From sequence record OR204650.1: a stretch of 39,650 nucleotides of DNA; one strand, written 5' to 3'. Shown here piece after piece: positions 2,223 to 39,404 of this stretch. Each line of letters opens with the position of its first letter. Position 1 is the stretch's first letter. The DNA comes from Escherichia phage pO91. A model generated the notes under the pieces. The model was not told the origin of the DNA. It was given only the letters and a program-made list of their open reading frames with translations, and made no database searches. Made by a program: the position numbers and the translations under genes.

Positions 2223-4904
2223 ATGAGCGTCATCTCTATTGATAAACAGGACTTCTCTGATGTGTCGAACGCCATTGAGCCGTTTAACCTGCTGGCTGAC
2301 CATTATGGGCAAGACCTTGCAGTCAAGCAGCTTCAGCTTGAGCATGAGGCATACACTGAAGGCGAGCGACGTTTCATCAAGAACCTTGAGCGCCAGACTG
2401 AGCGCGGGGAACTGGCAGACAATCAGGTCGCCAAGCCTTTGATGCAGACTCTGGTCCCTAAGATTGCGCAAGCAGTCAAGGAGTGGCACGAAGGCCAAGA
2501 CGGGAAGCTGTCAACCTCTCGTCCGAGCGTAGCGTTCACCATGTTGAGCACTGAAGAGAAGGCCGTAAAGGACCGCTCTCTGCGCATCTCCTGTGAGTCT
2601 GCTGCGGTTATCATACTGAAGGTCATCCTCTCCAAGTTGGTCAAGCCTGAAGGGATACCGATTACACCGATGGCCTCCGCGATAGGTCGCACACTTGAGG
2701 ATGAAATCCGCTTCGGTCGAATCAGAGACAAGGAGCAGGAGCACTTCAAGAAGGCGATAGCTGAGAACCTGAACAAGCGAGCTGGGGTATCCTATAAGAA
2801 AGCCTACATGCAAGCGGTTGAGGCCTCCATGCTGGAGCAAGGCCAACTGGAAGATGCGTGGGGGACTTGGAGTCCTACCGAGTCGGTACACGTTGGCATC
2901 AAGATGCTTGAGATTGTCATCCAGTCTACACAACTGGTCGAGCTTAAGCGTTATGGTGCTGGTAATGTAGCGGCTGATGTCGAGATGGTCCATCTGTCAG
3001 AATTCTGGGTCAAGAAGATGGCACAACGTGGCTTCAACCTTGCGGGTATCGCGCCAGTCTATCAACCTTGCGTAGTTCCACCAAAGCCGTGGACTGGAGT
3101 CGTAGGCGGTGGTTACTGGGCTAAAGGTCGCAGACCGTTACCATTGATTCGCTTAGGGTCTAAGTCTGCGGTAGCACGTTACGAAGACGTGTACATGCCT
3201 GAAGTCTATGACGCTGTGAACATCATCCAGAATACACCTTGGAAAGTTAACAAGAAGGTTCTGGACGTGGTGAACATGGTCGAGAAGCTGAACAACACGC
3301 CTATTGATGACATCCCTCAGATGGAACCACTGAAGCCTGAGGACTATGCTGGTGAGACCGAGGAGGAACTCAAGGCATGGAAGAAGGCTGCTGCTGGTAT
3401 CTATCGCCGCGAGAAGGCCCGACAGTCACGCAGGTTGTCACTGAGCTTTATCGTTAACCAAGCGAACAAGTTCTCTCAGTTCAAGGCCATCTGGTTCCCG
3501 TACAACATGGACTGGCGCGGTCGCGTCTACGCTGTCCCGATGTTCAACCCTCAGGGTAACGACATGCAGAAGGGTCTCCTGACTCTGGCAGTCGGCAAGC
3601 CTATTGGTGCTGGCGGTTTCAAATGGCTAAAGGTACACGGGGCAAACTGCGCGGGTGTCGATAAAGTAACATTTGAGGAGCGCATAAAGTGGGTGGAGGA
3701 CAACCACGACAACATCATGGCTGCTGCTAAGGAACCTATGGATAGCATTGAGTGGTGGGGCAAGTTAGACTCTCCGTTCTGCTTCCTAGCGTTCTGCTTC
3801 GAGTATGCTGGCGTAATGCACCACGGCTTGTCTTACAACTGCTCGCTGCCGATAGCGTTCGATGGGTCCTGCTCTGGGATTCAGCACTTCAGCGCGATGC
3901 TTCGTGACCACATCGGTGGACATGCAGTAAACCTAACGCCATCAGGTAAGGTCCAAGACATCTACCGCATTGTGTCTGACCGCATCGAGGAGGAGCTTAA
4001 AGTCCTGCTTGTTAGCGGTACGGACAACGAGATGGTAACTCACGAGGACAAGAAAACTGGTGAGATTACCGAGCGCCTCAAGCTGGGGACACGAGAGCTG
4101 GCCCGTCAGTGGCTGACCTACGGTATGTCACGCAAGGTCACTAAGCGTTCGGTCATGACTCTAGCCTACGGGTCGAAAGAGTACGGCTTCGCAGACCAAG
4201 TTTACGAGGACATCGTGATGCCAGCGATTGACTCAGGGTCTGGCGCTATGTTCACCGAACCCAGCCAAGCGTCTCGCTTCATGGCTAAGATGATTTGGGA
4301 AGCTGTGAGTGTGACCGTAGTTGCTGCGGTTGACGCGATGAAATGGCTTCAAGGTGCCGCCAAGCTGCTGGCTGCTGAAGTGAAGGACAAGAAGACTGGC
4401 GAAATCCTGAAGCCATGCCTTCCGGTACACTGGGTCACTCCTGATGGTTTCCCGGTCTGGCAGGAATACCGCAAGAAGGATACCACACGTTTGAACCTGA
4501 TGTTCTTAGGATCATTCAACCTTCAGCCTACAGTCAACAAAGGAACGAAGAAAGAGCTGGACAAGCACAAGCAGGAGTCAGGCATTAGCCCGAACTTCGT
4601 CCACTCACAAGATGGTAGTCACCTCCGCAAGACTGTAGTCCACACGCACCGCAAGTACGGTGTGATGTCATTCGCAGTTATCCACGATAGCTTTGGGACC
4701 ATCCCGGCTGACGCTGAGTATCTGTTCCGTGGTGTCCGTGAGACGATGGTCGAGACCTACCGCGATAACGATGTGCTGCTTGACTTCTACGAGCAGTTCG
4801 AATACCAGCTTCACGAGAGTCAGCGCGACAAGTTGCCTGAGCTTCCGAAGAAAGGTAAACTGAATATCGAAGACATCTTGTCTTCAGACTTTGCATTCGC
4901 TTAA
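2223..4904 (+). CDS. Single-subunit DNA-directed RNA polymerase (T7 gene 1 homolog)
   Basis: 893 aa, collinear with recalled T7 RNAP over the full length (PFN.LADHYG, FPYNMDWRGRVYA, SPFCFLAFCFEY, GSCSGIQHFSAML, HDSFGT, C-terminal FAFA). Confidence 0.97.
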   Translation: MSVISIDKQDFSDVSNAIEPFNLLADHYGQDLAVKQLQLEHEAYTEGERRFIKNLERQTERGELADNQVAKPLMQTLVPKIAQAVKEWHEGQDGKLSTSRPSVAFTMLSTEEKAVKDRSLRISCESAAVIILKVILSKLVKPEGIPITPMASAIGRTLEDEIRFGRIRDKEQEHFKKAIAENLNKRAGVSYKKAYMQAVEASMLEQGQLEDAWGTWSPTESVHVGIKMLEIVIQSTQLVELKRYGAGNVAADVEMVHLSEFWVKKMAQRGFNLAGIAPVYQPCVVPPKPWTGVVGGGYWAKGRRPLPLIRLGSKSAVARYEDVYMPEVYDAVNIIQNTPWKVNKKVLDVVNMVEKLNNTPIDDIPQMEPLKPEDYAGETEEELKAWKKAAAGIYRREKARQSRRLSLSFIVNQANKFSQFKAIWFPYNMDWRGRVYAVPMFNPQGNDMQKGLLTLAVGKPIGAGGFKWLKVHGANCAGVDKVTFEERIKWVEDNHDNIMAAAKEPMDSIEWWGKLDSPFCFLAFCFEYAGVMHHGLSYNCSLPIAFDGSCSGIQHFSAMLRDHIGGHAVNLTPSGKVQDIYRIVSDRIEEELKVLLVSGTDNEMVTHEDKKTGEITERLKLGTRELARQWLTYGMSRKVTKRSVMTLAYGSKEYGFADQVYEDIVMPAIDSGSGAMFTEPSQASRFMAKMIWEAVSVTVVAAVDAMKWLQGAAKLLAAEVKDKKTGEILKPCLPVHWVTPDGFPVWQEYRKKDTTRLNLMFLGSFNLQPTVNKGTKKELDKHKQESGISPNFVHSQDGSHLRKTVVHTHRKYGVMSFAVIHDSFGTIPADAEYLFRGVRETMVETYRDNDVLLDFYEQFEYQLHESQRDKLPELPKKGKLNIEDILSSDFAFA

Positions 4905-5210: not shown

Positions 5211-5233
5211 CCTAAACTATCACTATAGGATTA
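5211..5233 (+). promoter_or_regulatory. Phage RNAP promoter (phi1.1-like)
   Basis: CCTAAACTATCACTATAGGATTA; -16 to +2 match the window consensus. Confidence 0.75.
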
Positions 5234-5276
5234 GACTCAAGGTCATGACTCAAAGTCGTGGCCTTCATGATTAACC
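5231..5276 (+). promoter_or_regulatory. Conserved hairpin element, copy 1 (putative RNase III site, R1.1-like position)
   Basis: TTAGACTCAAGGTCA...TGGCCTTCATGATTAAC; 7-bp stem AAGGTCA/TGGCCTT (one G-U) at 5239-5245 and 5259-5265; same element at 12379 and 35600. Confidence 0.5.
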
Positions 5277-5306
5277 CTAAATAAACACTACTGGAGATTT
5301 AACCAC

Positions 5307-10302: not shown

Positions 10303-10320
10303 ACTATCACCTTAGGGATT
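10298..10320 (+). promoter_or_regulatory. Degenerate phage promoter-like site
   Basis: ACTAAACTATCACCTTAGGGATT; upstream half matches the consensus, -4 and -3 are substituted (CT for TA). Confidence 0.35.
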
Positions 10321-10366
10321 GGACCATGAGTCCTGTCCCTTTGTTCGCATTTGTGATTATTAAATA

Positions 10367-15807: not shown

Positions 15808-16674
15808 ATGTCTGAAAAGAAAATAGCTCTTGTGTTAGATGGTGACTATCTGGTGTTCTCTTCTATGGCTGCTGCCGAGGACGAGACTGACTGGGGTGAT
15901 GATATTTATACCCTTATCTGCGACCACGCCAAGGCTCGTCGTATCCTTGAGAACACCATCGCTGAAATCGTTAAGAAGCGCAAGGCGTGGAAAGACGCTA
16001 AGATTGTGATGTGCTTTACTGACGATAACAACTGGCGTAAGGACGTTCTGCCTACCTATAAGGCCAACCGTAAAGGTTCTCGCAAGCCTGTAGGTTACAA
16101 GAAGTTCGTAGCCGAAGTGATGGCTGACCCACGGTTCAACAGCTTCCTGCGTCCTACGCTTGAGGGTGATGACTGTATGGGTATCATCGGTACCAGACCT
16201 CAGATTGTCGGATGTGACCATGCGGTTCTGGTGTCCTGTGACAAGGACTTCAAGACCATCCCGAACTGTGAGTTCTTCTGGTTAACCACTGGTGAAATCC
16301 TGAGTCATACGACTGCCGAGGCAGACTACTGGCACATGGAGCAGACCATCAAGGGTGACACTACAGATGGCTACGGTGGTATTCCGGGGATGGGTGAGGA
16401 CACCACTCGTGTGTTCCTTGACGAGCCGTACTACTTCGTGCAGGAGAGCCGAGAGCTTAAGACTGGTAAGAACAAAGGCCAGATTAAGACTGAGTGGAAG
16501 AAGTATCCGAAGCGTGAAGACATGACGTTGTGGGACTGCATGGTGACTCTGGCTGCTAAGGCTGGCATGACCGAGGAGGAACTTCTGGTCCAAGCTCAGG
16601 TCGCTCGTATTTGTCGAGCATCTGACTATGACCCTAAGTCCAAGGAGGTCATCCTATGGACACCATCCATGTAA
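15808..16674 (+). CDS. 5'-3' exonuclease (T7 gene 6 homolog)
   Basis: DGD.LVF, CDHAKAR, FTD..NWRK, YKANRK, KPVGY, LEGDD.MG, SCDKDFKTIPNC, TIKGD.TDGY, GKNKGQ, LWDC, AKAGMTEE collinear with recalled T7 gp6. Confidence 0.95.
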   Translation: MSEKKIALVLDGDYLVFSSMAAAEDETDWGDDIYTLICDHAKARRILENTIAEIVKKRKAWKDAKIVMCFTDDNNWRKDVLPTYKANRKGSRKPVGYKKFVAEVMADPRFNSFLRPTLEGDDCMGIIGTRPQIVGCDHAVLVSCDKDFKTIPNCEFFWLTTGEILSHTTAEADYWHMEQTIKGDTTDGYGGIPGMGEDTTRVFLDEPYYFVQESRELKTGKNKGQIKTEWKKYPKREDMTLWDCMVTLAAKAGMTEEELLVQAQVARICRASDYDPKSKEVILWTPSM

Positions 16675-16701: not shown

Positions 16702-16800
16702 ACTGCATGTACAAGTGGTTCGGGTCGAACAACCGACCTAAACACTGAGTCTAACCGATAGTCATATCCTATCAATCCAACAGTCATCCATAGGTGAAAC

Positions 16801-16823
16801 ACTAAACTATCACTATAGGGACT
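16801..16823 (+). promoter_or_regulatory. Phage RNAP promoter (phi6.5-like)
   Basis: ACTAAACTATCACTATAGGGACT; perfect -17 to +4 consensus. Confidence 0.8.
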
Positions 16824-16884
16824 TTAGGACCTAAGATATGACTATAAGATAGACTTTAGTCTCAACTTAAAGAGGAGATTCAAG

Positions 16885-17157: not shown

Positions 17158-17171
17158 CTGTAGGAGGGACT

Positions 17172-17396
17172 ATGTGTTTCAGTCCAAAGATTAGCGCTCC
17201 GAAGCCTTCGGTCCAAGCACCTGAACCAGCACCTCTGAGTGAGGAAGTTGCGTCAGTTGACATCGGGGCTGAATCTGATGTGGACACCAACGAGACCAAA
17301 GGTATCAAAGACCTAAAGGTCAAGAAGGAGTCTGCACCTAAAGATAAATCGTCAGTTAGCCGCGCTATGCGAGCCTCTGGCGTCAACATGGGGTAA
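17172..17396 (+). CDS. Gene 6.7 homolog (small virion protein)
   Basis: N-terminal MCFSPKI and EPAPL match recalled T7 gp6.7. Confidence 0.8.
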   Translation: MCFSPKISAPKPSVQAPEPAPLSEEVASVDIGAESDVDTNETKGIKDLKVKKESAPKDKSSVSRAMRASGVNMG

Positions 17397-20617: not shown

Positions 20618-20640
20618 ACTAAACTATCACTATAGGGAGA
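20618..20640 (+). promoter_or_regulatory. Phage RNAP promoter (phi10-like, full consensus)
   Basis: ACTAAACTATCACTATAGGGAGA; T7-identical from -7 to +6; leader can form a GGGAGACC/GGTTTCCC stem. Confidence 0.85.
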
Positions 20641-20742
20641 CCAATAGACAGACTAAAGGTTTCCCTATTACTTCAGTCCATACGGATTGGGCATACAGTA
20701 AGTAATAAACTTTATCTTTCAATTGAATAGGAGAATTATCAT

Positions 20743-21921: not shown

Positions 21922-21961
21922 AACCCCTTGGGTGCCTTCGGGTGCTTGAGGGGTTTTTTGC
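21922..21961 (+). terminator. Late terminator (T7 Tphi-like)
   Basis: AACCCCTTGGGTGCCTTCGGGTGCTTGAGGGGTTTTTTG; G-U-rich stem and TTTTTT run; closely resembles recalled T7 Tphi. Confidence 0.85.
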
Positions 21962-21980
21962 TTAAAGTGAGAGGAGACTT

Positions 21981-22547
21981 ATGGCTCAATACATTCCACT
22001 GAATACTAACGATGACTTAGACGCCATCAACGATATGTTAGCTGCTATCGGTGAACCAGCAGTCCTACAGCTTGACGAAGGAAACGCTGATGTCTCGAAC
22101 GCACAACGTATCCTGCATCGTGTCAATCGTCAGGTCCAAGCTAAAGGCTGGAACTTTAATATCAACGAAGCTGCTGTCCTGACACCTGATGTCCAAGACA
22201 ATAGGATTCGATTCTTGCCGTCATACCTTCGTGTAATGACATCTGGGGCCACCAGCTACTACAGCAACATGGGTGGATACCTGTACGACCTGTCCACTCA
22301 GTCAACCACTTTCACCGACCCTATCACGGTAGAGCTTGTGGAGATGAAGCCATTCTCCGAGATGCCTGTGGTCTTCAGGGACTACATCGTCACTAAAGCT
22401 AGCCGTGAGTTCAACGCTAAGTTCTTCGGTAGCCCAGAGTCAGAGCTATACCTTCGTGAGCAGGAAGCAGAACTCTATCAGCAGGTTATGGAGTACGAGA
22501 TGGACACTGGTCGCTACAACATGATGTCTGACATCGGGAGGGACTAA
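21981..22547 (+). CDS. Tail tubular protein A (T7 gene 11 homolog)
   Basis: GEP.V, RIL.R.NRQ.Q..GW.FNI, GGY.YD, EMP..FR..IVTKASR.FN..FFG.PE, MEYEMD.G.YNM match recalled T7 gp11. Confidence 0.93.
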   Translation: MAQYIPLNTNDDLDAINDMLAAIGEPAVLQLDEGNADVSNAQRILHRVNRQVQAKGWNFNINEAAVLTPDVQDNRIRFLPSYLRVMTSGATSYYSNMGGYLYDLSTQSTTFTDPITVELVEMKPFSEMPVVFRDYIVTKASREFNAKFFGSPESELYLREQEAELYQQVMEYEMDTGRYNMMSDIGRD

Positions 22548-22783: not shown

Positions 22784-25141
22784 ATGCCACTAATTACTCA
22801 ATCAATCAAGAACCTTAAAGGCGGCATTAGCCAGCAGCCTGATATACTGAGGTTCTCAGACCAAGGCGAGGCACAGGTTAACTGCTGGTCATCCGAGAGT
22901 GATGGCCTCCAGAAGCGCCCACCTACAGTCTTCAAGCGACGTCTTAACATCGACGTTGGGAGCAACCCTAAGTTTCACCTGATTAACCGTGACGAGCATG
23001 AGCAGTATTACATCGTGTTCAATGGGTCCAACATTCAGGTAGTTGACTTGAGTGGTGATCAATACTCAGTGTCAGGTGCGGTAGACTACGTTAAGTCCTC
23101 CAACCCACGAGATGACATCCGTGTCGTTACCGTGGCAGACTATACGTTCGTCGTTAACCGTAAGGTTGTCGTCAAAGGTGGAAACGAGAAGTCACACTCT
23201 GGTTATAACCGCAAAGCACGAGCTTTAATTAACCTGCGTGGTGGACAGTATGGTCGAACCCTTAAGGTGGGAATCAACGGTGGCGTTAAGGTCTCGCATA
23301 AGCTACCAGCAGGTAATGATGCCGAGAATGACCCGCCTAAGGTGGACGCTCAAGCCATTGGTGCAGCTCTGAGAGACCTTCTTGTTCAGGCCTATCCTGA
23401 CTTCACGTTCGACCTTGGGTCTGGATTCCTGCTAATCACAGCTCCTTCAGGGACTGACATTAACTCAGTGGAGACGGAGGATGGCTACGCTAACCAGCTA
23501 ATAAGCCCAGTCCTAGACACTGTGCAGACAATCTCTAAACTACCTCTTGCAGCTCCTAATGGGTATATCATTAAGATTCAAGGTGAGACAAACAGTAGCG
23601 CCGATGAATACTACGTGATGTATGACTCCAACACTAAGACGTGGAAGGAGACAGTGGAGCCGGGAGTTGTCACTGGTTTCGATGTCACCACAATGCCACA
23701 TGCTCTGGTCAGACAGCCTGATGGCTCCTTTGAGTTTAAGACTCTGGATTGGTCCAAGCGTGGTGCTGGTAACGATGACACAAACCCTATGCCTAGCTTC
23801 GTGGATGCTACGATTAACGATGTGTTCTTCTACAGGAACAGGCTAGGGTTCTTGTCAGGTGAGAACGTAATAATGAGCCGTTCAGCCAGCTACTTTGCGT
23901 TCTTCCCTAAGAGTGTGGCGACACTGAGTGATGATGACCCTATTGATGTAGCTGTAAGTAACCCTCGAATCTCAATCCTTAAGTATGCCGTTCCGTTTAG
24001 CGAGCAGCTACTACTTTGGTCGGATGAGGTTCAGTTCGTGATGACAAGCTCTGGGGTACTTACCTCGAAGTCTATCCAGCTTGATGTAGGCTCAGAGTTT
24101 GCCCTAGGTGACAATGCCAGACCGTTCGCTGTAGGACGCTCAGTCTTCTTCTCAGCTCCTCGTGGGTCATTCACCAGCATTAAGCGATACTTCGCTGTAG
24201 CTGATGTGTCTGATGTGAAGGATGCCGATGATACAACTGGTCACGTACTGTCCTACATCCCTAACGGGGTGTTTGATATTCAAGGTACAGGGACTGAGAA
24301 CTACATCTGCGTCAACTCTACAGGTGCATACAACCGTATCTACATCTACAAGTTCTTGTTTAAGGACGGCGTACAGCTTCAAGCCTCTTGGTCACACTGG
24401 GAGTTCCCTAAAGATGATAAGATTCTGGCGTCTGCTTCTATTGGCTCTACCATGTTCATCGTTCGTCAGCACCAAGGAGGGGTAGACATTGAGCACCTTA
24501 AGTTCATCAAGGAGGCAACTGACTTCCCCTCAGAGCCATATAGACTACACCTTGACTCCAAGGTGTCTATGGTAATTCCAATTGGCTCATATAATGCTGA
24601 CACATATAAGACTACGGTTGACATTGGTGCTGCTTATGGTGGCAACGCTCCGTCTCCCGGTCGGTACTATCTGATTGACAGTCAGGGTGCCTACGTGGAC
24701 CTTGGGGATTTGACCAGTATCTCTACTGAGGTTATCCTCAACGGCGATTGGTCAGGACGCACAGTGTTCATCGGGCGGTCCTATCTGATGTCCTACAAGT
24801 TCTCACGATTCCTGATTAAGATTGAAGATGATAGTGGCACTCAGTCTGAAGACACTGGTCGTCTACAGCTTCGTCGGGCTTGGGTCAACTACAAAGACAC
24901 TGGCGCTCTGAGACTCATTGTCAGAAACGGTGAGCGGGAGTTCGTGAATACCTTCAACGGGTACACCCTTGGTCAGCAAACCATCGGGACTACCAACATT
25001 GGGGATGGTCAGTATCGCTTCGCTATGAACGGTAACGCATTAACCACGAGTCTAACCTTAGAGTCCGACTATCCTACCCCAGTGTCAATCGTTGGGTGTG
25101 GCTGGGAGGCGTCATACGCTAAGAAAGCTCGTTCCGTCTAA
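22784..25141 (+). CDS. Tail tubular protein B (T7 gene 12 homolog)
   Basis: SQSIKNLKGGISQQPDILR, HLINRDEHEQYY, VTVADYTF.VNR, DVFF.RNRLGFLSGEN, DDDPIDVAVS, KYAVPFSE, GRLQLRRAWVNY, IGCGWE collinear with recalled T7 gp12. Confidence 0.97.
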   Translation: MPLITQSIKNLKGGISQQPDILRFSDQGEAQVNCWSSESDGLQKRPPTVFKRRLNIDVGSNPKFHLINRDEHEQYYIVFNGSNIQVVDLSGDQYSVSGAVDYVKSSNPRDDIRVVTVADYTFVVNRKVVVKGGNEKSHSGYNRKARALINLRGGQYGRTLKVGINGGVKVSHKLPAGNDAENDPPKVDAQAIGAALRDLLVQAYPDFTFDLGSGFLLITAPSGTDINSVETEDGYANQLISPVLDTVQTISKLPLAAPNGYIIKIQGETNSSADEYYVMYDSNTKTWKETVEPGVVTGFDVTTMPHALVRQPDGSFEFKTLDWSKRGAGNDDTNPMPSFVDATINDVFFYRNRLGFLSGENVIMSRSASYFAFFPKSVATLSDDDPIDVAVSNPRISILKYAVPFSEQLLLWSDEVQFVMTSSGVLTSKSIQLDVGSEFALGDNARPFAVGRSVFFSAPRGSFTSIKRYFAVADVSDVKDADDTTGHVLSYIPNGVFDIQGTGTENYICVNSTGAYNRIYIYKFLFKDGVQLQASWSHWEFPKDDKILASASIGSTMFIVRQHQGGVDIEHLKFIKEATDFPSEPYRLHLDSKVSMVIPIGSYNADTYKTTVDIGAAYGGNAPSPGRYYLIDSQGAYVDLGDLTSISTEVILNGDWSGRTVFIGRSYLMSYKFSRFLIKIEDDSGTQSEDTGRLQLRRAWVNYKDTGALRLIVRNGEREFVNTFNGYTLGQQTIGTTNIGDGQYRFAMNGNALTTSLTLESDYPTPVSIVGCGWEASYAKKARSV

Positions 25142-25165
25142 CTTATTGAAGGGCCTATAGATTTA

Positions 25166-25188
25166 CCTTAACTATCACTATAGGGACT
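25166..25188 (+). promoter_or_regulatory. Phage RNAP promoter (phi13-like) inside a perfect 10-bp inverted repeat
   Basis: CCTTAACTATCACTATAGGGACT; flanked by GGGCCTATAG (25151-25160) and CTATAGGCCC (25187-25196). Confidence 0.7.
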
Positions 25189-25217
25189 ATAGGCCCTTAA
25201 GGTTATAAGGAGACTTT

Positions 25218-25682
25218 ATGTATATTCGCAAGGCTACGGAACCAGATGTCCACTACTTTCTGTGGCATCTTTCAGCAGATGATGTTAATGAATGCAAAGC
25301 AAACTACGGGTCAACCGTGGGTCTCTCTGAGAGACTGCTTAAGCACCTATCTCCATCATCTGTGGTCTTAACTAACGGTGTAGGCGAAGTGTTTGCCTAT
25401 GGTGGAAACCAAGGGGATAACGTATGGTTCTTGACTTCGGGTCTTGTCCACAAGCTGAGACCTAAAGAGAAGCGAGAGTTCATAAAGCGTATCTCTGAGT
25501 ACAGGGACTTAATGTTAGACCAATACGGGACCATCTGGAACTACGTGTGGTCAGGCAATAAGTCTCACATTAAATTCTTGAAGTTGCTTGGTGCTAGGTT
25601 TCACGAGGAGTGGACTGTAAGCCCAGTAACTGGTGAGCGTTTTCAACTATTCACTATCTCTAAGGAGGATGGATGTGACTAA
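25218..25682 (+). CDS. Internal virion protein at the gene 13 position
   Basis: ORF track; AAGGAGA RBS; assignment by synteny only. Confidence 0.6.
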   Translation: MYIRKATEPDVHYFLWHLSADDVNECKANYGSTVGLSERLLKHLSPSSVVLTNGVGEVFAYGGNQGDNVWFLTSGLVHKLRPKEKREFIKRISEYRDLMLDQYGTIWNYVWSGNKSHIKFLKLLGARFHEEWTVSPVTGERFQLFTISKEDGCD

Positions 25683-26088: not shown

Positions 26089-26652
26089 ATGGGTCTCATG
26101 GCTGTAGCCGGGGCCACTATGTCCGCATCCCAACAGGCCAAGGCCGAAGGTGCAGCAATTGACGCTCAGAACCGACAGGCTCAGGAAATGGTTAAGCAGA
26201 TGAACTACTCTGACGCCAACCTGAAGATGCAGGAGCGAGACCTGAAGGAGCAGCAGATGGCTGAACTGACAGAGACCACGCTCAACGGTATACGCAATCA
26301 GGGTATGGTCAGAGCTGCGGTAGCTGAGTCCGGTCTGGAAGGTAACTCTATGGACAGGATTGAACGTCAGGTCGAGGGAGACACAGTCAAGGAGAGAGCA
26401 GGGATTACCGAAAGTTACAACCGCGACTATGCGGCTATCTTCGGGAACCGTATCGCCAACATTGAGAACACAAAGTCTGCTATCCGTGGTCAAGGTAAAA
26501 TCATCAAGACCAGCCCACTGGCTCATGCACTTAATGTTGCTACCGCCGGGATGCAAGGCTACGCCGCTGGTAAGTCAATCTCTGGAGCGTCCAGCTCTGG
26601 GGGTGCTGCACCTATTAGTGCTGCTAAAGGCACACCTACAGGTCATAGCTAA
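26089..26652 (+). CDS. Internal virion protein (T7 gene 14 homolog)
   Basis: LEGNSMDRI and RDYAAIF match recalled T7 gp14; position between gp13 and gp15; exact start uncertain. Confidence 0.8.
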   Translation: MGLMAVAGATMSASQQAKAEGAAIDAQNRQAQEMVKQMNYSDANLKMQERDLKEQQMAELTETTLNGIRNQGMVRAAVAESGLEGNSMDRIERQVEGDTVKERAGITESYNRDYAAIFGNRIANIENTKSAIRGQGKIIKTSPLAHALNVATAGMQGYAAGKSISGASSSGGAAPISAAKGTPTGHS

Positions 26653-38259: not shown

Positions 38260-38802
38260 ATGGCGAAGGTGAAGGACATCGACAGGGTGTCCCTCTTCGA
38301 CCACTATGCGTATGTTGATGGACAACTGGTGTGCAGGAAGCCTTTCGGCAGCTCGAAGAAGACCCCGGGCGAACCTATGGGCTTCTCTGTACACCCTTCC
38401 GGATACGCCATAGTGAAGGTGCTTGGAGGTAGGTATAGACGCTCTCGAATCATATACAGTCTAGCTGTAGGTCGAATACCTAAGGGTATGATGGTCGACC
38501 ACATCAATGGTGATAGGCTGGACGATAGACCTGAGAACTACAGGCTTGTTACTGCGCTTGAGAACCGCTGGAACTCAGAGGGTGGAGAGACTAATGGTCT
38601 CCCTAAGGGTATCAGCTTCTTCAAGCCAACAGGTAAATATCGTGCTCAGCTTCGGGTTCATGGTAAGTGTTTCACTAAGACTTCGGATTCCATAGAGGAA
38701 CTAGAGGCATGGCTGGCTGCTCTACGAACAGAGAAGCACAAGGAATACGCAGTAAACCGACGGTCCCCTACGCGAGATAGGACATACAGAAACCGTAAGT
38801 AG
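38260..38802 (+). CDS. HNH_3-type homing endonuclease with AP2-like domain (paralog B2)
   Basis: MVDHINGDRLDDRPENYRLVTALEN plus GISFFKPTGKYRAQLRVHGK; directly after the large terminase gene; AAGGAGG RBS. Confidence 0.85.
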   Translation: MAKVKDIDRVSLFDHYAYVDGQLVCRKPFGSSKKTPGEPMGFSVHPSGYAIVKVLGGRYRRSRIIYSLAVGRIPKGMMVDHINGDRLDDRPENYRLVTALENRWNSEGGETNGLPKGISFFKPTGKYRAQLRVHGKCFTKTSDSIEELEAWLAALRTEKHKEYAVNRRSPTRDRTYRNRK

Positions 38803-38815
38803 AATCAACAGGTTA

Positions 38816-38838
38816 ACTAAACTATCACTATAGGGATG
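38816..38838 (+). promoter_or_regulatory. Phage RNAP promoter near the right end (phiOR-like)
   Basis: ACTAAACTATCACTATAGGGATG; transcript begins GGGATGGGGGGACCGGGGGGACC. Confidence 0.8.
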
Positions 38839-38924
38839 GGGGGACCGGGGGGACCTTACTATATGCCGACCAAAAGTTAGCATATATACATATATAAGGT
38901 AGACCTTAAGTCTCCCTATTGTTA

Positions 38925-39243: not shown

Positions 39244-39404
39244 TGCAATCATGGTAACGCTTCATGAGCGGAAGACCTAAGGTCAGTTCATAGCTGACGC
39301 TACTCTACTGACCTTAGCTACTGTAGTCAAGGACTTTAGGTAACACCTTAATAGAAGCTCACTTAGGGTCATCCTACTTATTGGTCTATCCTAGTGTCGC
39401 CTGA

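Follow-up and report, generated by a model that had tools for sequence, protein, structure and literature searches.

In the Escherichia phage pO91 (OR204650.1), the promoter preceding gene 13 is enclosed by an inverted repeat, and the resulting hairpin is probably the Kayfunavirus counterpart of the RNase III site R13, which overlaps the promoter phi13; this assignment is made by analogy with better annotated relatives. The broader claim, that a functional hairpin forms in the RNA of read-through transcripts only, is highly probable. The window, i.e. the whole stretch of DNA analyzed here (39,650 nucleotides), represents a K1F-like phage of the genus Kayfunavirus, within the T7 group.

The spacer between genes 12 and 13 has 76 nt, with the gene 12 stop at 25141 and the gene 13 ATG at 25218. 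On its sides, and both on the plus strand according to the ORF list and the annotation of relatives, are gene 12 (tail tubular protein B, 22784..25141), the source of the read-through RNA with both arms, and gene 13 (internal virion protein A, 25218..25682), the first gene downstream of the hairpin. An earlier note on this DNA had described a perfect inverted repeat of 10 bp (25151-25160/25187-25196). The repeat is real and lies in that place, but its length was underestimated: the repeat finder returns 12 bp with 100% complementarity (25149-25160/25187-25198) and arms separated by 26 nt. The 5' arm, AAGGGCCTATAG (25149..25160, plus strand), starts 8 nt past the gene 12 stop codon and contains the conserved core GGCCTATAG (25152-25160, plus strand). 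The 3' arm, CTATAGGCCCTT (25187..25198, plus strand), contains the conserved core CTATAGGCC.

The phage RNA polymerase promoter, equivalent to phi13, extends from -17 to +6 at 25166..25188 on the plus strand and was recognized by an exact core match, ACTATCACTATAGG at 25171-25184 (ACTATCACTATAGGGA when taken to 25186). The records of ASO2B and CR44b mark a promoter at the homologous site, and that of EcoDS1 names it 'phi13'. By analogy with T7 numbering, the predicted +1 is G25183, so the 26-nt spacer forming the loop (25161..25186, plus strand) runs from -22 to +4 of the promoter, and the 3' arm corresponds to +5 to +16 of the promoter-initiated RNA. The presence of positions -17 to +4 within this loop, as previously proposed, is thus confirmed, with the loop reaching a little further upstream. 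Both arms resemble the promoter core CTATAGG. Reading the sequence itself, we found a tandem near-duplication with a period of 9, ACTATAGG(G)ACTATAGG(C), at 25177..25193 of the plus strand. The 3' arm comes from the second ACTATAGG copy and so closely repeats the promoter core, with a 9-nt offset.

Only RNA reading through from gene 12 contains both arms of the hairpin, while RNA started at the promoter has the 3' arm alone. The earlier note had already pointed out this asymmetry, and it agrees with the overlap of R13 and phi13 in T3 and phiYeO3-12. Of the 11 promoter copies that the window has on its plus strand (including the one before gene 13), none is located between 20623 and 25171. A terminator-like hairpin followed by GTTTTTTGCT is found at 21935-21962, just before gene 11 (ATG at 21981), and is the probable T-phi equivalent. 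Given the absence of promoter copies between 20623 and 25171, any RNA bearing the gene 13 hairpin must start upstream of the T-phi-like terminator (21935-21952), as in T7, and since there are no copies between this terminator and 25171, genes 11 and 12 rely on read-through.

The repeat by itself is only modestly unusual, since perfect inverted repeats of at least 12 bp with loops of at most 60 nt are present in about 10% of windows simulated under a first-order Markov model. This value, together with the fact that the 3' arm nearly repeats the promoter core in tandem, could suggest a chance repeat or a functionless, neutral by-product of the 9-nt duplication. However, the sequences flanking the promoter are complementary to each other with a dG of -28.1 kcal/mol, against -13.2 +/- 3.5 kcal/mol after shuffling, a value equalled by 0 of 300 shuffles; when the test is run on all 11 promoters, the gene 13 promoter has z = -4.97. 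The 66-nt hairpin RNA has a predicted energy of -21.5 kcal/mol (z = -3.38 against shuffles). Moreover, the arms are far better conserved than their surroundings throughout the genus, and other genera have equivalent hairpins with different sequences. We take chance as ruled out because the flank pairing beats all 300 shuffles and the arms are conserved in all relatives examined, and a functionless origin is extremely improbable.

Under the preferred reading, transcripts started upstream and reading through gene 12 would fold into the 12-bp stem and short helices stacked on it, and the loop would contain the promoter. By homology, the host RNase III would cut the folded hairpin, separating the message of genes 11-12 from the message of gene 13 onward. 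The upstream RNA would keep a 3' hairpin protecting it against 3' exonucleases, with a presumed effect on mRNA stability. RNA initiated at the promoter (+1 at about 25183) would have the 3' arm only and would neither form the hairpin nor be processed here. The occurrence of R13 at the same position in T3 and phiYeO3-12 supports this processing role through positional homology. A typical RNase III substrate comprises about two turns of helix, can be composed of stacked short helices and often contains internal loops; at T7 sites with internal loops, a single RNase III cut leaves a protective 3' hairpin (PMC1540722).

Minimum-free-energy folds of the window predict an extended structure stacked on the 12-bp stem (25142..25209, plus strand). 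It includes a lower helix CUUAU/AUAAG (25142-25146 / 25205-25209, plus strand) and an upper helix CCUUA/UAGGG (25166-25170 / 25181-25185, plus strand), both weakly supported, and another predicted helix below the stem, GUCU/AGAC, giving 5 bp above and 5+4 bp below in all. The stem with its predicted stacked helices would reach about 17-22 bp. These extensions are not conserved in sequence: other subclades have UUGAA/UUUAA below and UUUC/GGGA above, and some reach 13+5 bp. The firmly conserved helix has 9-12 bp, below the typical two helical turns, and the extra helices are predicted ones that differ between subclades.

This short conserved helix is one of the points in favor of a hairpin working without RNase III, as a barrier to 3' exonucleases or an insulator that ends the gene 11-12 message, the ends being produced by other nucleases. 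The stable fold (-21.5 kcal/mol for 66 nt) and the position right after the gene 12 stop codon would fit such a role, and R13 of T7, one of ten RNase cleavage sites in that phage and located between genes 12 and 13, is described as a weak RNase III site (PMC5592923; PMC6938266). Against it, the equivalents in T3 and phiYeO3-12 are annotated as RNase III sites, and the hairpins and promoters of the window are paired in the same way as in the RNase III site map of T3. We consider this alternative unlikely.

Within the genus, a 1-kb query around the site has 94-96% identity with Hafnia phage yong1, PE3-1, K1F and many others. IMG/VR, metagenomes and GenBank yielded 28 different spacers of the K1F type, in which three single changes in total affect the 9-bp cores GGCCTATAG and CTATAGGCC: the 5' core is altered in 2 of the 28 (A>G in L031, giving a G.U pair, and G>T in L121), and the 3' core in one (T>C in L123, giving an A.C mismatch). 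One change thus results in G.U and two are disruptive. Both cores are also intact in 8 of the most divergent GenBank records of Kayfunavirus, down to 74% regional identity. Free variation among the 28 spacers is seen in the three bases outside the core, in the 5' half of the loop (the most variable stretch of the intergenic region), in the sequence after the 3' arm and at the end of gene 12, while the length between the arms is nearly constant (25-26 nt).

The cores are the same across four types of promoter specificity, ending in ...CTTAACTATCACTATAGGGA, ...ATTACACCCTCACTATAGGGA, ...TATTTAACACTCACTATAGGGA and ...ATTTTACCCTCACTATAGGGA. Four spacers (L045, L050, L052 and L131) have a differing specificity region (ATTACACCCTCACTATAGGGA, TATTTAACACTCACTATAGGGA or ATTTTACCCTCACTATAGGGA) with unaltered hairpin arms, which indicates switches of polymerase and promoter specificity within the genus. 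In EcoDS1 (L126, NC_011042), an 85-nt stretch that starts in the last bases of gene 12 and reaches the ATG of gene 13 is identical to the window, and gp13 is only about 65% identical. This combination suggests mosaic recombination, with a possible breakpoint near the gene 13 start.

No compensatory double change was found in the K1F-type arms, in IMG/VR, metagenome contigs or the most divergent GenBank matches. Pairing as such is therefore only putative for Kayfunavirus, and cores kept so strictly constant could have a function tied to their sequence. Such a signal would consist of the opposed CTATAGGCC copies being recognized by a protein or tuning the use of the promoter, without RNA pairing; for example, a phage or host factor binding GGCCTATAG/CTATAGGCC on RNA or DNA could sort read-through from promoter-initiated gene 13 messages, or tune phi13. 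It would explain cores that are nearly invariant and uncompensated in about 36 relatives differing in flanks and promoter specificity, the resemblance of the arms to CTATAGG and the near-constant spacer of 25-26 nt. We know of no candidate protein binding the hairpin arms. On the other hand, sister clades pair the same position through G.U wobbles, which are mismatched in DNA, the K1F-type variant L031 has a G.U pair as substitute, and no minus-strand promoter match is present here. A 26-nt spacer makes cruciform extrusion unfavorable, which also weighs against a DNA-level signal. Altogether, this possibility is quite improbable. An origin of the 5' arm from a divergent minus-strand promoter was considered separately and rejected, with no minus-strand promoter-like match there.

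Beyond the genus, the RefSeq record of T3 (NC_003298) contains a stem_loop at 25443..25480, 'RNase III recognition site R13', overlapping 'T3 promoter phi13' (25457..25479), and in phiYeO3-12 (NC_001271) a stem_loop at 26209..26246, 'putative RNase III site R13', overlaps phi13 (26223..26245). The 5' arm starts 6-8 nt past the gene 12 stop codon in T7, T3, phiYeO3-12 and the window. The T7 spacer folds likewise, with UUCUCCCUGUGGUGG pairing with UCACUAUAGGGAGAA; the folds reach z = -5.26 in T7, -3.62 in T3, -2.91 in phiYeO3-12 and -3.38 in the window, against shuffles. An element of this kind is reportedly known from T7 through the 1983 work of Dunn and Studier.

From 79 loci around gp13 homologs, we obtained 66 distinct gene 12-13 spacers. 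For most of these, among them the T7, T3 and K1F types and the majority of the K11 and Kvp1 types, flank and promoter are more complementary than in the shuffles, and in nearly every sampled clade the stretch after the gene 12 stop pairs with the promoter core or with the first transcribed bases. The pairing sequences are clade-specific: TTCTCCCTGTGGTGG with CACTATAGGGAGAA in the T7-like clade, GTCTCCCTG(C/T)GGTGA with TCACTAAAGGGAGAC in the T3-like clade, a 19-bp stem in the K11-like clade, CCCC..CTCAATAAGTGA with TCACTATTGGG..GGGG in the Kvp1-like clade, ACCCTATG.CTTTCCA with TGGGAGGCATAGGGT in L054, and GTCCCCTAT with ATAGGGGAC in L048. The sole exception among the sampled clades is the Dickeya Dagda-like one (L055-L057), with no promoter-enclosing hairpin. 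These three spacers contain a plain GGCCC-UUCG-GGGCC tetraloop hairpin just upstream of the gene 13 promoter.

For counting pairs, the T7 structure was imposed by hand on a cross-clade alignment of 19 sequences. Pairing is in register in 81% of the cells, versus 44-55% with the partner slid, and the 81% is a lower bound, as the Kvp1-like and L054 rows were misaligned by MAFFT and counted as unpaired. RNAalifold recovered only 4 pairs from this alignment, a result of the same misaligned rows. Two columns are dominated by G.U (GU 10 / AU 4 and GU 13 / AU 1), and changes on both sides of a pair are present in 5 cells across the T7-type clades, a number reached by 7 of 500 shuffles. The G.U-dominated columns point to pairing in the plus-strand RNA and not in DNA: since G.U is a mismatch in DNA, selection would act on the plus-strand RNA.

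Pausing and termination were also contemplated in the earlier note, side by side with processing: processing gained support from the positional homology with an RNase III site, while no U-run, terminator match or nearby ATCTGTT was found in favor of termination. In favor of a signal making the phage RNA polymerase pause or stop during read-through transcription, a stable nascent hairpin would indeed form as the enzyme crosses the promoter. Nevertheless, the stem has no U-run, the next bases being AAGGUUAUAAGG (also given as AAGGTTATAAGG), and the terminator scan finds no terminator-like match at 25140-25215, yet it detects the T-phi-like site at 21935-21952 with its T-run. The class II pause/termination motif ATCTGTT matches the window only at 4720, 10662 and 38122, the nearest more than 12 kb away. 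The class I terminator T-phi is likewise a stem-loop in late transcripts, but it has a small loop and a U-run, whereas the gene 13 element has no U-run and a 26-nt loop, far larger than in known terminators. Pausing or termination is therefore very unlikely here.

In Rfam, no match was obtained at the hairpin; the region 24800-25600 gives two matches at chance level (E above 1), both elsewhere. We also considered a fold hiding the ribosome-binding site of gene 13 only in read-through RNA. The accessibility of the Shine-Dalgarno sequence was compared in read-through, promoter-initiated and 'cleaved' RNAs of the window and six relatives, and this candidate was discarded, as no consistent difference in unpaired probability was observed.

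The gene 13 promoter is not the only one enclosed by a repeat in the window, contrary to the earlier note. Flank complementarity stands out at 2 of the 11 promoters, 25171 (z = -4.97) and 16806 (z = -6.55), with the remaining ones within the expectation from shuffles and 38821 being marginal (z = -2.1). The gene 13 promoter stands apart only in that its repeat is perfect. At the second site, the probable phi6.5/R6.5 equivalent (16748..16855, plus strand), the promoter at 16806-16821 is enclosed by arms of 24 nt with 83% complementarity (16748-16771 and 16832-16855), and the 126-nt RNA folds with -33.3 kcal/mol (z = -3.92). A 288-aa ORF (15808-16674, presumably gene 6) is followed by a short ORF, and this promoter is located between the short ORF and the one after it, the position of phi6.5. 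For the same segment, the minus-strand RNA is predicted to fold better (-45.3 vs -33.3 kcal/mol), since several C.A mismatches of the plus strand become G.U there. Among the RNase III stem-loops of T3, exactly two, R6.5 and R13, hold a promoter in full, in good agreement with the two hairpin promoters of the window.

Additional structures were observed near other promoters. The segment 5216-5290 has 78% mean column identity with phi1.1/R1.1 of T3, including AAGGTCAT...GTGGCCTT..TGATTAAC, and the promoter at 5216 precedes a hairpin (about 5238-5265) that is probably homologous to R1.1, the homologous sequence covering about 5238-5280; the T7-type map of RNase III sites would thus be shared by the phage at least in part. 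The promoter at 10303 has the hairpin GGGAUUGGACCAUGAGUCCUGUCCC from +1 (10315-10340), resembling the phi3.8/R3.8 overlap annotated in T3. The transcript from the 20623 promoter (phi10 equivalent) opens with a strong stem-loop, GGGAGACC...GGUUUCCC (20635-20670), like the 5' stem-loop of the T7 gene 10 mRNA. At the last promoter (38821; 38761-38847), the marginal flank complementarity involves the G-rich runs GGUCCCCU...GGGGGGACC. Near the right end, an 11-bp perfect inverted repeat, CTAAGGTCAGT / ACTGACCTTAG, with a 19-nt loop is found at 39277-39317.

The kind of element described here is already known from T7 and from the annotation of T3 and phiYeO3-12, and the twist in register, with the 3' arm on the duplicated core copy, is modest. 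The result is chiefly of value for annotation: the Kayfunavirus records examined (the two of K1F, ASO2B, CR44b, EcoDS1 and eight others) have no RNase III site annotated and mark only the promoter here. The genus appears to retain the T7-type arrangement in which RNase III sites alternate with promoters (equivalents of R1.1, R6.5 and R13). The element also offers a small evolutionary example of a processing hairpin whose 3' arm shifted off the promoter core onto a duplicate copy, which uncouples the sequence of the hairpin from that of the promoter. For the engineering of K1F-type phages or the reuse of their promoters, the 76-nt gene 12/13 spacer should probably be regarded as containing overlapping signals for transcription and RNA processing.

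[quoted passage not shown] It differs in that a defined internal loop is bordered by two helices, each about 10 bp long, and in that its proximal and distal boxes are mapped. R6.5 of T3 (stem_loop 17135..17206) holds the promoter phi6.5 (17160..17182), and the whole promoter lies between the arms, as in the element at 25149-25198, but it belongs to another locus, with longer, imperfect arms containing internal loops and an unrelated sequence. An RNase cleavage site adjoining a promoter is described as common in the T7 genome (PMC6938266).

The closest system is R13 of the T7 group, which shares with the window the position in the gene 12/13 spacer and the overlap with the gene 13 promoter, so that only read-through RNA folds; R13-type cleavage is reported for T7 only. 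Helix lengths are comparable, with 8+5 bp in R13 of T3, 15+3 bp in T7 and 12 bp plus short extensions in the window. In the T7, T3 and K11 types, it is the promoter core (about -8 to +7) that serves as the 3' arm, with two G.U wobbles in the pairing, and this register is also found in L048 and the Kvp1 clade. In the window, unlike T7 and T3, the 3' arm extends from +5 to +16, the stem is perfectly Watson-Crick and the whole promoter is in the loop. Intermediate registers are present in L054 and the K1F subclade of L046, with 3' arms starting from about -1 and +1. Since the 3' arm of the window differs from the promoter core, these structures are positionally equivalent to R13 and not identical to it in register.
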